NCBI RefSeq assembly: GCF_018977255.1
Contig: NW_024704742.1
Coordinates: 36,954,001 to 37,018,000 of the forward strand
Reading direction: 5' to 3'
DNA: 64,000 nt
DNA from: Callorhinchus milii
Taxonomy: Eukaryota
Below are positions 42,339-53,027 of the stretch, in pieces. The first letter of the stretch is position 1, and each line of letters opens with the position of its first letter. The notes under the pieces are model-generated. The model did not search any database, was not told the DNA's origin, and was given only the letters and a program-made list of their open reading frames with translations. The position numbers were made by a program, and so were the translations under genes.

Positions 42339-42350
42339 CTGAATACAAGA

Positions 42351-42362
42351 GGTTCAGGAAAA
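42351..42362 (-). promoter_or_regulatory. U12-type branch point sequence
   Basis: TTTTCCTGAACC (consensus TTCCTTAAC, one mismatch), with its As about 15 nt upstream of the exon start at 42338. Confidence 0.8.
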
Positions 42363-44134
42363 TATGCCGCAAAATAATCTACGTTTAATGCTGACGGATG
42401 TGGCTAAGCAGAAATAAGGAAAAGCTCAGAGAGGGTATCTTTAAATGTATTCACTGCAGTTCAGTAAAACAGTACCAATACAGTACTAATTTCTTATATT
42501 TCTCTTCTTATTGACACTTATCAAGATTGTTATACTGTACAGCCCTTTCCTTTTTTAGATAAACACTTGGCTCCCCTAATTTAGATAACTTGCAGGTCAG
42601 TCGACTTTCCATTTTGAATGTTCAGTGAGAAATTACCATTTACTGTGACAAAATGTCCACAAGCATTTCATTATAGATGATAATGTTTTGTAACATTTTT
42701 CACTGAGGTTAAAACAGTCCTCTGCAGGAAAGAACTTTAGCATTGCTGGTGCTTTGAGACACTGGGACAACGTACAAATTGCTGTTGTTGCTGTCTCATT
42801 GCCGGGAAAAAGTGCCTCATGGTACAGTAAGCTGCACTTTCAGCAAGATTTCTATATACATCATGCCATCACTTCAGAGCTGAGGATGTGTGCGTGAGTC
42901 AGTATAGTCTACATGCTGGGGATGCAGTGTACATCATGAGACACCTTTCCAGGTAGCATGAGTAAACCTCCTGGTTTCTTGTAAAGGGCTTTTTCAACTC
43001 AAAGATGATATATCTTGCCTCCTTCAAGGCACATCTCTTCGACTAGGCCTTTGTCCACCCTCCTACCCTCCCTCCTCCCTGATCCCAACCCACCCTAGGT
43101 CCAAATCCCTGACTGTCCAGTGTCTTGGGACGTCCTCCCGCCTCTATACAAATGTTATTTTGCATTTGTGGTTTGGATCTTTTTCAGTTAGTTCCTGATG
43201 AATTATGCATCTCACGATTCAGAACTACAAGCTGCATTTGAAACTACATTCAGCAGTGTAGACAAGCCATGAAGAGTCTCCCATGTGACGGACAGTCTGT
43301 CAATGTGCTGAGGAGAAGTCAGTGTGAACAAAAACTTGGTGACGGCTCTGAAAAGCTGTCAAGGGATTACTGTTAACATTTTGTTATGCTTAGGTGACGT
43401 TCCTGTAAAAGATGCTTTGTCTCTTCAAATTACTAAAAGGTAACTTTGCTGTGGATTTGTCAGTTCATGTGGTGCATATATTATAGGAGCAAATCTTATA
43501 TCTATTTTATCAAAGATTGCCTGCATACGTGTGGTGTCATTTGTGGCAACCTAAAATTAAATACAGATATAGGGCTAAAACATTGAAGAACATTAGAATA
43601 AAAGTTTTCAAAATGATGAATGGTTCTGACAGAATCAAAAGAGAATGACTATTCCACTGATTGGCAATACGTGAAGGAAAATAATATTATAAAGAAAAGG
43701 GATAGAGGGGTTAACTCCAGTGAGGGAGCGAGCGTCAGTACAGACACAGTGGGACCAATGGGCTCCTTCTGTAATAAGAACGCTCAATGATTCCATGTTT
43801 CAATGGCCAGAGAATGATAAATAAAGTGAAGGAAATTATATTGTTGGAAAGCAAGCATTGGCAGCAGGTATCTTGTTTTCTAGACCCCGAGTGACATTTG
43901 GGGAGAATGTGAATGGAATACACAACAGATGCTGTCTTGAGTCTCTCCAGGGATATAGGCTACAGAAATGCAATTGTGCATAAAACATGGACCTAACTAT
44001 ATAAGAATAGTCCAGAAAGGAAACCTCCATTGAATGGTGTTCTGACAATTGGGACTTGTCTAACATTACAGTGGTAAACCAGTAACTTGTTTGTTCTGGC
44101 ATGGACTAGTTGGGCCTAATGACTTGTTCCAGTG

Positions 44135-44530
44135 CCACTCTACCAGTTCTTGCCAAGCTACACTGGCTCCCTATCGCCGAAGGGATTGATTTCAAGATCC
44201 TCACACTTATTTTGAAATCCCTTCATGGGCTGGCATTTCCCTATCTCTCAGACCTGCTTACTCCCCAACCCACTACCTACTGCCTCCACTTGACTGTGTC
44301 CAGCGTTCTTTGTACCCTTCATTGAGCCACTATGCCCTGAAACTCTGGAACGCTCTTCGTCTAACCCTCTGCCTTGCCTCTTCCCTCCCCATCTTCAGAT
44401 CGCACCTGAAGACCTTCCCCTTCGATCGTGCCTATTGTCATCTCCCCATTCCCCTTGGCTCGGATCATGCTCTGACTCTCTGGGAAGCTACCCTCCGTGA
44501 GGGGCGCTATATAAATGCAAGTTTTGTTGC
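44135..44530 (+). mobile_element. Degenerate L2 3' fragment
   Basis: LAKLHWLPI..IDFKILTL..KSLHGLA.PYLSDLL; tail ggcgctatataaatgcaag. Confidence 0.8.
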
Positions 44531-46752
44531 TTTATCATTCTACAAGACACATTGGATGTGTTCAATGCACAAACCCTGAGATGGGTTTTAAATTCAATAA
44601 TAATACTTTATGATACAAAGAAATACATAATTCAAACCTTTGGTGAGGAAAAAGTCATCCTAGCTTACAAGATACATTTTTGATAACTGAGGACACTTCC
44701 ACCCTTATTAGGTTTCACTAAAAAGTTTTTGGCAAAATTTCAAATATAAGAAATGATAACAACAACAGCGCCGGTTGCTAATCACTGGTTCACTCGAGGT
44801 CTCTACGAGCTTGCTCTTGTGGAGCATTATTTCCACTTTCATTCATGCCACATTCATGCCAAAATATATTGACATACATGATCTTAATTGAGAACACTGA
44901 AGCTTGGACCTTCTCCCTCTTCAAGAGAAGAAAAAGGATTGCAAATATGCTTCAGTAAGGATGGTGCCCCTTTAGCAAATAGGCTGCATGGGAAAATGCA
45001 AATGTAAATGGTGTCTTGTTCCCCCCCCCCCCAAAAGTGCCTCTGGACATAACGGTGCATTGTCGGCAAAGAGGATTGTTTTCTAACATTAATCAATAAC
45101 CCACCCACATTGTTTTTGTGTCCACAATCTGGACATATCTGCCGCTATCTTATTCCATTCAACTTTCCATTGAAAACTTCAAATTATTCATTTTTCACCC
45201 TAGCATTATTGCAAGCCAAACTTTTGAGCCAACTGACATCCAACAACTTGATTTATCTGCAGCTCACTTAGTTGAATTCAGTTAATGTTTCCTGGTGGAA
45301 TTGTCTGTAGCCTCATGAGCATAAAAGCCTTGCTTGCTATCTACTAGTTTGAGGCACTATGCATTTATTAGTGCATGCCATATATACTGGATCAACAAAA
45401 TAGATTAGATGAGGAGGCAGCAAAAATGTCACTTACACCAGCAGAGCAAGGAAACAGTTTGACAGAATATAGTACAGTGAATGCTAGAGAGAGTTTGATA
45501 ACTGTTGAACAGCAGCATTATAATATTTTGATACACATTATCATCAGCATTTTGAAGGATGTGAGCATAGTAGCTGACACAGTGAGAATCAGTAACTGGA
45601 TCAAGGAGTAAATTGGCTAAGAATTTCCTTGTCTATTTTCAATAAAGAATTCAACAAACTTCTCAGTTGCAAAATATTGACACACACACTTGGGACCCTT
45701 ATTGTGTATCAAGGAAAGAAAGCTTACACATGTTTTCTCTGAGCTGCACCTGAGCTGGAATTTGCGCCATTGTTTAAAACTAAAGAAATCCTTATACCAC
45801 GAAAGTCAAAAGTTAATGTTCTTTATATTTCTACAGCTTATTTGTAATAACAAAGCTTTTTGCCACCTTTGACAATTTGATCTTCAGATGAAATGTTTGA
45901 TGTGGAGAGCATACTTTTGAATTTAAAAAAATGTCTTTGAAGAAATCAGTACGGATTTGTAAAGGATTTCATTGAGTTGACATGTTCAATTCGATTGATG
46001 TTACCATGCCAACATTCTATACTTTGATACCTCCACCTCTTTGGGATGATATAGCCCCTTTGAATCACATCATTCTTTGATCAAATCAATGTATTGGAGC
46101 CTTGCTCGCTGCTTTGGTCCAGAAAGGTTAATGCTGCCCCCAACAAATTGTGCTTTGCACAGATGCTCCCTGCTTTCCACTGAGAGTGATGAGGTAAACA
46201 TTTGACTGAACGTGCCTTGGGATGTCCTCCCAACGTGAAAGATGCTTTAATTTGTAATTTTGTGGTTGTTACTGAAGGCGACAGGAATAACTCAGCCTGT
46301 GCTATGATGCCTACATCCCAAGTCATCGATGATTCAGAAAATTAAATTATTTTTGGTTGAATGTGACAAAATTCAAATACCGAGGTCTATCATATCCATT
46401 ACAGTCTGAGACAGGTATATGTGTGTTTGGATATAACGTAGGAACAAGGTGGACCTGAGGTGCAATGCACTTTTTGCTTTCACTGCTGATTGACCAGCTT
46501 CCTGTGCACTGTGCCCAGGTATAGAGATCCCACAGTGATTCCAGAAACTATTGAAAATGTTCAAGAGAGCTGTCACTGCTGAGTGGCATGCTCTCCATGC
46601 ACGGCTCACCTAAACAGAAACTCCGACAACCCCAAGGGTGCTGGCGAGAGGCCGGAGTGTACTGTGCTCTGTTATATTGTGGGTTGTGACTTTATGGATG
46701 CTGCACGTCATGTTATAAAAGGAGTCAGGCTGTAAAGGTTCCAAATAAAAAG

Positions 46753-46925
46753 ATAATAATAATAATCCTTGCATTTGATATAGCGCTTTTCACGTCGGGA
46801 GGACGTCCCAAAGCGCTTCACAGAACACACTGTAAAGTGAATTGACTGTATATTTGTGGGCGAACGCGGCAGCCAATTGCGCACAGCAATGTCCCACAAT
46901 TGTAGATTGAAAATGACCAATTTAT
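46753..46925 (-). mobile_element. SINE 3' half, young
   Basis: nearly identical to 22805-22985; about 135 nt from the downstream mutually exclusive exon. Confidence 0.85.
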
Positions 46926-51970: not shown

Positions 51971-52199
51971 TTAACTATTCAAATTCAACTGGTGTCCTGT
52001 TAACCAGCACCAGCAAATGTTACAATCTGTGGGCCTGCAACGGTGTCCACAGGCGACTTTGGATTCAACCATTTTGGCAAAGTCATTGGCGGGGATTAAA
52101 CCTACGGCCCCTCCACAAGTATCAACTAGTCTCAAACACATGTATCATTGATGTGCTAATGCTCGTAAGCCACTCCTCTGCCCACCCCCTTCACTCAGG

Positions 52200-52480
52200 T
52201 AACACAGAAGTGCTGCCCATCCCCCAACCCCTCCACATCACTAACAGCAGCCATGCCTTCTGCCACCATGTCTCTAATCTCTGGAAATTCCTGCCTCAAT
52301 CCCTCCAACTCGCCCTGTATTAATCTAATTTTAAATCCCACTTGAAGACCTACCTCTTTGACCACACCTATGGTCACCTCCTACGCCCTCTTCTCCCTTC
52401 CTTGGCATCCAATCCGAACACCAAACAGCACTCTGAGACATTATCCCCATGAAAAGCACTATATAAATGCAAGTTGTTTT
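52200..52480 (+). mobile_element. L2 3' fragment
   Basis: AFCH..NLWKFLPQSL-like sequence and L2 tail. Confidence 0.6.
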
Positions 52481-52947
52481 TTTGGTGCTGATATCACCAC
52501 ACTTAGCAATTTTTACTACCACATTCAATGACTTTTGCTATTCGAAACAGTGATCTCAAATGGTGGTTTTTGAATTCTATTCGCATGTATTCCAAATATT
52601 CCAAATGTAGTCCTGTAGCTCAGTGGTTAGAGCACTCGTCTCGCAAATGAGAGACCTGGGTTCGAGAATTACTCATTATTTCTGAGAAAGGAGGGGGGAA
52701 AAGTGTTAACTATGAAAACATTTTTTAACATAAGGACATTAAAAGACATCTGTGATATATTTCAACATATTGCCGACTGAATGTTTTCATGAAAGAGATG
52801 TTGCTGGTAAAAAATGATGATGTGAAATATATGCTTCTGGGATGTGCTCTGCAATAAGAAACAATCACTTGCGCAGGCTTGTCTGGTCTAAAGGAATTCA
52901 AAAATAGATGGATTAAAAGAGTCATGATCAACTGCTGCAAGCAGCAC

Positions 52948-52955
52948 AAGGATAC
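52948..52955 (-). promoter_or_regulatory. U12-type (minor spliceosome) 5' splice site
   Basis: intron begins GTATCCTT, the U12 donor consensus. Confidence 0.9.
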
Positions 52956-53027
52956 AGTCCCTTCCTGGGAAGAGGATTTTGTGGCGAACCATTTCTCCCA
53001 TTATGCACCCAACGGACCAAATATCCA
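52956..53027 (-). CDS. MAPK10: MAPK10 mutually exclusive exon, upstream copy ([25 protein letters not shown]), not in ORF track
   Basis: C-rich pyrimidine tract plus cgtAG acceptor; 72 nt; donor GTATCCTT; translated by hand; matches the canonical JNK3 sequence as I recall it. Confidence 0.95.

Follow-up and report, generated by a model that had tools for sequence, protein, structure and literature searches.

A probable JNK3 copy of the vertebrate mutually exclusive 6a/6b exon pair, with a U2/U12 hybrid intron, in Callorhinchus milii

Two alternative exons in a JNK3 gene

The minus strand of a 64 kb stretch of the Callorhinchus milii genome, hereafter the window and the frame of the coordinates in Table 1, carries part of a JNK kinase gene, exons 4-11, including two homologous versions of exon 6, termed 6a and 6b. 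It is highly probable that this locus is the JNK3 copy of the mutually exclusive 6a/6b pair of vertebrate JNK genes, in which the two exons are separated by a hybrid intron, having a donor of the minor (U12-type) and an acceptor of the major (U2-type) spliceosome. Splicing behaviour at the locus is here extrapolated from experiments on mammalian JNK2.

When the 402-residue C. milii JNK record P0004 was compared with the window by tblastn, exons 4, 5, 7 and 9 matched with 100% identity; the remaining exons matched at 93-96%, in local alignments that overran the exon ends. The best named protein matches of the locus were to MAPK10. Exon 7 scored 118 bits against human MAPK10 chains, as compared to 112 bits against MAPK8 and at most 93.5 bits against MAPK9 chains, an order which argues that the gene is the JNK3/MAPK10 orthologue of this chimaera-like cartilaginous fish. 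Separate JNK1-like and JNK2-like loci exist in the same genome, apart from the gene in the window.

A preliminary description of this stretch proposed that two paralogous 72 nt exons both have acceptors consisting of a pyrimidine tract and AG, and both end in U12-type donors, all of which was confirmed base for base (Table 1). Exon 6a is preceded by ...ccccccacccttcgatctcgtag and followed by GTATCCTTG, the corresponding sequences around exon 6b being ...catttcattctgttctcag and GTATCCTTC. The two exons are of equal length and share 18 of 23 residues and 46 of 72 nt. As with 6a, the AG of the 6b acceptor is accompanied by 16 pyrimidines in 20 positions. Both donors are of the U12 form RTATCCTT, matching the U12 5' splice site consensus at eight of nine positions and that of U1 at only four; the remaining six donors in the window agree with the U1 consensus at seven or eight of nine positions. 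Amongst the latter is the donor of the constitutive exon 5, which is U2-type, agreeing with U1 at 7/9 consensus positions and with U12 at 4/9.

The octamer GTATCCTT occurs twice in the window, counting both strands, and both copies are the donors of 6a and 6b. As 2.06 occurrences are expected from shuffled sequence, it is not enriched in the window and the count alone is not significant; the informative feature is exact placement, and it is beyond chance that both copies directly abut the 3' ends of a pair of homologous exons. The preliminary description also saw no U12-type site before the second exon, and read the 5.8 kb intron between the exons as combining a U12 donor with a U2 acceptor. 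Both points hold: no match to TCCTTRAY was found in the 1.4 kb of coding-strand sequence preceding exon 6b, the predicted pairing with U12 in this region is ordinary (see below), and the intron, of 5823 nt, has the layout claimed.

These features suggest how the choice between the exons could be made exclusive. The pair would have arisen by tandem duplication of an ancestral stress-MAPK exon, whose acceptor was U2-type and whose donor was U12-type. The major spliceosome would then join the U2 donor of exon 5 to either of the U2 acceptors, that of 6a or that of 6b, and the minor spliceosome would join the U12 donor of the chosen exon to exon 7, before which lies the only U12 branch site with its 3' splice site. 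Joining 6a to 6b would pair a U12 donor with a U2 acceptor, an intron that either spliceosome would remove poorly, such that the two exons would not be kept together. In a direct join of exon 5 to exon 7 the mismatch would be the opposite one, the donor being U2 and the 3' end U12-type, which would disfavour the skipping of both. The hybrid intron would forbid double inclusion only; double skipping would be blocked by the second mismatch, between exons 5 and 7, a block that may be leaky. By analogy with the mammalian genes, we infer that JNK3 transcripts would include exactly one of the two exons. The incompatibility would not itself favour one exon over the other, a choice that falls to other elements.

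No in-frame stop codon was found in any of the four possible transcripts (with 6a, with 6b, with both or without either), hence nonsense-mediated decay cannot police the outcome. As decay has no target and the introns are too long for steric hindrance, spliceosome incompatibility appears to be the only means of enforcement visible in the sequence.

The exon 7 branch site and the minor spliceosome

Exon 7 is preceded by TTTTCCTGAACC. The branch site before the common downstream exon had been placed at a distance of about 15 nt; TTCCTGAAC lies 13 nt from the exon, where the usual spacing between branch site and 3' splice site is 10-20 nt, and the strongest predicted duplex with U12 among nine acceptors is also found there. 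Neither TCCTTRAY nor TTCCTGAAC is enriched in the window, the former occurring 12 times (12.7 expected) and the latter once (0.86 expected), hence only their positions are informative.

In order to compare acceptors, the branch-site-binding stretch of this genome's own U12 small nuclear RNA was folded against the 40 nt upstream of each AG on the coding strand (4028 sites), which is a crude energy measure rather than a trained classifier. The sequence upstream of exon 7 gave a predicted duplex of -11.9 kcal/mol, the best of the nine acceptors and within the top 0.8% of all sites. The equivalent values were -6.3 kcal/mol for 6a and -6.7 kcal/mol for 6b, at the 27th and 22nd percentiles respectively. 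The energy test thus agrees with the prediction that a U12-type 3' end precedes exon 7 but not 6b.

The assembly also contains genes for minor-spliceosome RNAs scoring above the Rfam cut-offs, namely U12 (133 bits), U11 (105 bits) and U6atac (105 bits), and the U12 gene has the canonical branch-site-binding stretch. The best-scoring U6atac copy (L018, G000:C2:27158569-27158693) has an A in place of the G of the Rfam consensus in GAAAGGAGAGA and lacks a T-run, being directly followed by tRNA-like sequence; a second copy (L019, G000:C14) has the canonical box, and carries a 73 nt insertion.

Paralogues and the age of the arrangement

Searching the C. milii assembly with the exon 7 and exon 6a peptides revealed two further JNK genes, one JNK1-like (on C7) and the other JNK2-like (on C13). 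Each has both 6a and 6b, and GTATCCTT follows all six of these exons across the three genes. In the two further genes, 6a and 6b are separated by an intron of 911 nt (JNK1-like) and 235 nt (JNK2-like). Upstream of exon 7 in the JNK2-like gene, TTCCTGAAC recurs unchanged, again at a spacing of 13 nt. In the JNK1-like gene (L002, G000:C7), a degenerate TTTTTCTCAGC, far further from TCCTTRAY than the site of either other gene, is found 24 nt before exon 7.

The exons of each type group together across the paralogues. The three 6a exons are identical at 58-68 of 72 nt (JNK3 to JNK1-like, 68; JNK3 to JNK2-like, 58) and the three 6b exons at 60-67 of 72 nt (JNK3 to JNK1-like, 67; JNK3 to JNK2-like, 63), whilst any 6a and any 6b are identical at only 38-48 of 72 nt. 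This grouping places the duplication of the exon before the separation of the three JNK genes. The preliminary description had inferred that the mechanism predates the split of this lineage from mammals, which was correct though too modest, given that all three JNK paralogues have the pair.

The U12 donor is older than the exon duplication. Four p38-like loci in this genome have the homologous 72 nt exon, in each case with the GTATCCTT donor, which therefore follows all ten of the homologous JNK and p38 exons examined; two ERK/CDK-like matches have no intron at the homologous point. Of 283 fetched database proteins, 42 read through a 6b-type exon into the residues 'RIL' and two through a 6a-type exon into 'CIL', the expected translations of C/GTATCCT and T/GTATCCT (the slash marking the exon end). 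At the protein level, such read-through is consistent with an ancient U12 intron. When a 40-residue in-frame reference including flanking intron was used as the query, exon 6b was found to have 93-96% protein identity to JNK of a tick, a pseudoscorpion and a spider (P0155, P0161 and P0165), the models of which read into 'RIL'. This identity, together with the read-through, suggests that 6b may be the ancestral-type copy and that the U12 donor may predate the vertebrates. Nova-regulated JNK splicing in amphioxus is cited, from Irimia et al. 2011, in a review, the relevant passage of which does not specify the exons (PMC8586503).

Conserved elements adjoining the alternative exons

Around 40 nt of intron upstream of 6b is conserved in all three paralogues. 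It contains an invariant GCATG, extended to TGCATG in the JNK3 and JNK1-like genes, and CAT repeats. The GCAUG of this element is a putative Rbfox-type site. The element as a whole fits the YCAY-rich tract described by Chang et al. (2007; PMC1874599), who are also the source for JNK2 minigenes in which a conserved pyrimidine tract before 6b, rather than the exon itself, makes 6b the default. Extending these experiments to the present locus, conserved elements of this kind, and not the incompatibility, would set the choice between 6a and 6b.

A second element, the 26 nt of intron directly following 6a, is nearly identical in the JNK1-like paralogue. A hairpin after the 6a donor (UGCUGCUUGCAGCA) was considered as a stable structure and rejected, its folding energy of -9.7 kcal/mol being no better than the mean of shuffled sequences (-10.4 kcal/mol; z = 0.28); only sequence conservation stands at this position.

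The coding sequence of the alternative exons is itself unusually constrained. Between the JNK3 and JNK1-like genes, 39 of 46 third codon positions are identical in 6a and 6b combined, as compared to 30 of 60 in exon 7 (Fisher p = 2e-4). The equivalent figures are 33/46 and 27/60 for the JNK3 and JNK2-like genes (p = 0.01), and 34/46 and 22/60 for the JNK1-like and JNK2-like genes (p = 2e-4). Third positions are hence far more conserved in 6a and 6b than in exon 7, a pattern typical of alternative exons under constraint at the RNA level, to which these would be subject.

Exon 6b is also bracketed by an inverted pair of short interspersed nuclear elements (SINEs), one lying 162 nt downstream of the exon and the other inside the hybrid intron, 3.8 kb upstream. 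The arms are 145 nt long and 96% complementary, with a further 39 nt at 79% adjoining them; between other copies of this SINE, complementarity reaches only 74-92%. By folding back on one another in the pre-mRNA, the two arms could loop out 6b, and the pair would be a species-specific feature.

These observations can be drawn together in one joint reading, which we put forward tentatively. Exons 6a and 6b, along with 26-40 nt of adjoining intron, would have remained nearly constant at the RNA level since the separation of JNK1, JNK2 and JNK3, pointing to an embedded and largely undeciphered code for exon choice that predates the genome duplications of vertebrates and may comprise the GCAUG/CAU-repeat element before 6b and the 26 nt element after the U12 donor of 6a. 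In this species, the young inverted SINE pair may contribute a further, lineage-specific loop in the RNA, and so favour 6a in JNK3.

Alternative explanations

Several observations weigh against exclusive choice enforced by spliceosome incompatibility. The exon 7 branch site TTCCTGAAC departs from TCCTTRAY by one mismatch, at a core position, with G in place of T. The exon 7 acceptor has 15 pyrimidines in 20 positions, being as rich as the U2-type acceptors, and the U12-type 3' splice site of MAPK12 is described as usable by the major spliceosome (PMC8329584). Amongst 85 fetched proteins spanning exons 5 to 7, 52 have neither alternative exon, 18 have 6a, nine have 6b, three have both and three have other inserts. 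A second list of 47 comprised 14 with neither, 14 with 6a, 12 with 6b, one read-through and six that do not span the region, although it is biased, because the query (P0004) itself lacks exon 6 and returned mostly models that do likewise. Finally, human JNK3 isoforms differ only at their N and C termini in the table of one review (PMC8699841).

The protein models, the pyrimidine content of the exon 7 acceptor and the MAPK12 precedent would all be accommodated if the incompatibility were leaky, with a substantial share of transcripts skipping both exons through use of the exon 7 acceptor by the major spliceosome, giving a kinase shorter by 24 residues of the C-lobe. Exon 5 is joined straight to exon 7 in P0004, P0243-P0248, P0260 and others, which include NCBI mammalian MAPK10 'isoform X' models and two Callorhinchus records. 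However, most such records are 402-residue automatic gene models, which neither prove nor exclude leakiness, and the exon 5 donor has ordinary U2 features and none of the U12 type. Leakiness on this scale is hence regarded as unlikely, though it retains an appreciable chance of being correct.

The review table of human isoforms bears more directly on whether 6b is used in JNK3 at all. Were it an unused relic, the layout would have been inherited whilst only 6a was spliced in, and there would be no alternative splicing at this locus. The only two chondrichthyan MAPK10 records fetched (P0004 and P0006) contain neither 6a nor 6b; P0006, isoform X5 of Narcine bancroftii MAPK10, instead has an unrelated 36-residue insert between exons 5 and 7, for which a tblastn search found no counterpart in the window. 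Yet exon 6b is intact, with an open frame, a pyrimidine-rich acceptor and a perfect GTATCCTT donor. It is identical to JNK1-like 6b at 22 of 23 residues, 67 of 72 nt and 19 of 23 third positions, the intron immediately upstream is conserved in all three paralogues, and MAPK10 models of the 6b type are annotated in teleosts (nine of the 85 above) and in turkey (P0250). A relic therefore seems decidedly improbable.

Enforcement by steric hindrance, by nonsense-mediated decay of double inclusion or by docking and selector RNA structures has very little to recommend it: the inverted SINE pair could loop 6b out, but its arms are copies of an element found in some 30 places in the window, any steric limit is greatly exceeded by the 5823 nt between the exons (the paralogues having 911 and 235 nt), decay has no target in any of the four exon combinations, and the 26 nt element after 6a folds no better than shuffled sequence. 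Spliceosome incompatibility acting on a duplicated exon remains the preferred reading of the locus.

Exon map and repeats

The limits of the exons and of the associated signals are collected in Table 1. The last coding exon has tandem AG acceptors 5 nt apart on the minus strand (window 32573-32591; ctcAG/CGCAG/GTGCAG). Use of the upstream AG gives a protein ending in ...QVQQ and a stop codon, and use of the downstream AG gives a long tail ending in GPLGCCR. These are the classic short and long C-terminal variants of JNK, kept here.

An interspersed repeat of around 135 nt, with the core ...GGGAGGACGTCCCAAAGCGCTTCACAG..., is present in about 30 places in the window (e.g. 58063-58199, 15198-15334 and 62235-62371), and the introns of the window contain seven tRNA-like Rfam matches. 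The repeat is presumably a tRNA-derived SINE of the Deu type.

Table 1. Features of the JNK3 locus, in window coordinates; a slash marks the exon end in donor sequences
Feature	Coordinates	Strand	Remarks
Exon 4	62809-62671	minus	limits read from sequence
Exon 5, constitutive, 166 nt	56677-56512	minus	U2-type donor ATG/GTGAGA at 56511-56506
U2-type acceptor of 6a	53028..53049	minus	pyrimidine tract and AG; 16/20 pyrimidines at -3..-22
Exon 6a, 72 nt	53027-52956	minus	limits read from sequence
U12-type donor GTATCCTT after 6a	52955-52948	minus	octamer match
Intron element after 6a, 26 nt, GTATCCTTRTGCTGCTTGCAGCAGTT	52930..52955	minus	nearly identical in JNK1-like paralogue
Hybrid intron, 5823 nt	47133..52955	minus	U12 donor, U2 acceptor, without U12-type branch site near 3' end
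SINE arm 2	50953..51097	.	inside hybrid intron, 3.8 kb upstream of 6b
Intron element before 6b	47133..47172	minus	(T)GCATG at 47169-47164, CAT repeats, pyrimidine tract, AG
Exon 6b, 72 nt	47132-47061	minus	limits read from sequence
U12-type donor GTATCCTT after 6b	47060-47053	minus	octamer match
SINE arm 1	46755..46899	.	162 nt downstream of 6b; inverted pair with 50953..51097
U12-type branch site TTCCTGAAC	42360-42352	minus	13 nt before exon 7
Exon 7, common downstream, 183 nt	42338-42156	minus	U2 donor AAG/GTAAGA
Exon 8	40291-40167	minus	limits read from sequence
Exon 9	35820-35757	minus	limits read from sequence
Exon 10	34656-34579	minus	limits read from sequence
Last exon	start 32589 or 32584	minus	limits read from sequence

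Comparison with known systems

The inclusion of a single exon from a cluster is also the outcome in exons of the Dscam, 14-3-3 and ATE1 type. These rely on pairing between docking and selector sequences, however, and no such conserved pairing was seen at the JNK3 locus. A closer likeness is to exons 11 and 11a of TMEM87A/B (Olthof 2019, as described in PMC8329584), where a U2 3' splice site likewise lies inside a U12 intron and inclusion is either/or, although the gene is unrelated. The p38-type MAPKs of this genome share the 72 nt exon, its phase and the GTATCCTT donor at all four loci and, if the exon is single there, presumably represent the state before duplication.

The exon switch is real, but has already been described for vertebrates, and the evolutionary claim is likewise not new. 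A U2/U12 hybrid intron is attributed to the JNK family of vertebrates by Chang et al. (2007; PMC1874599), in whose account the layout is common to all three mammalian JNK paralogues, and who cite Letunic 2002 and Smith 2005 for the JNK 6a/6b exons; the arrangement in MAPK8/9 is referred to as interlocked U2/U12 introns by Akinyi and Frilander (2021; PMC8329584). Hence the preliminary description was accurate in holding that the hybrid layout is known from mammalian JNK genes. No paper on the JNK layout in cartilaginous fish was found in the literature searched, a gap which reflects taxon sampling and not a new kind of system.

The present analysis makes modest additions to this picture. In this slowly evolving cartilaginous fish each of the three JNK genes retains the switch intact, which dates its origin to before the JNK paralogues split. 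Intron elements conserved across the paralogues, and constrained synonymous sites, are candidates for the control of 6a versus 6b selection, and the inverted SINE pair around 6b is specific to this species. The locus also serves as a positive control, in that minor-spliceosome signals could be recognised correctly from raw sequence.

All of the sequence-level features that define a JNK-type U2/U12 exon pair, each of which was tested, are present at the locus. As in JNK2 (MAPK9) and JNK1 (MAPK8) of human and mouse, there are two tandem homologous exons with U2 acceptors and U12 donors, whose shared partners are a single U2 donor on the upstream side and a single U12 3' end on the downstream side; 6b is preceded by a conserved tract of pyrimidines containing YCAY-like repeats, and the exons follow the same order, the 6a 'RDY' type and then the 6b 'TDH' type. 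The differences are that the paralogue is JNK3, the organism a cartilaginous fish, the hybrid intron 5.8 kb long and the branch site TCCTGAAC.

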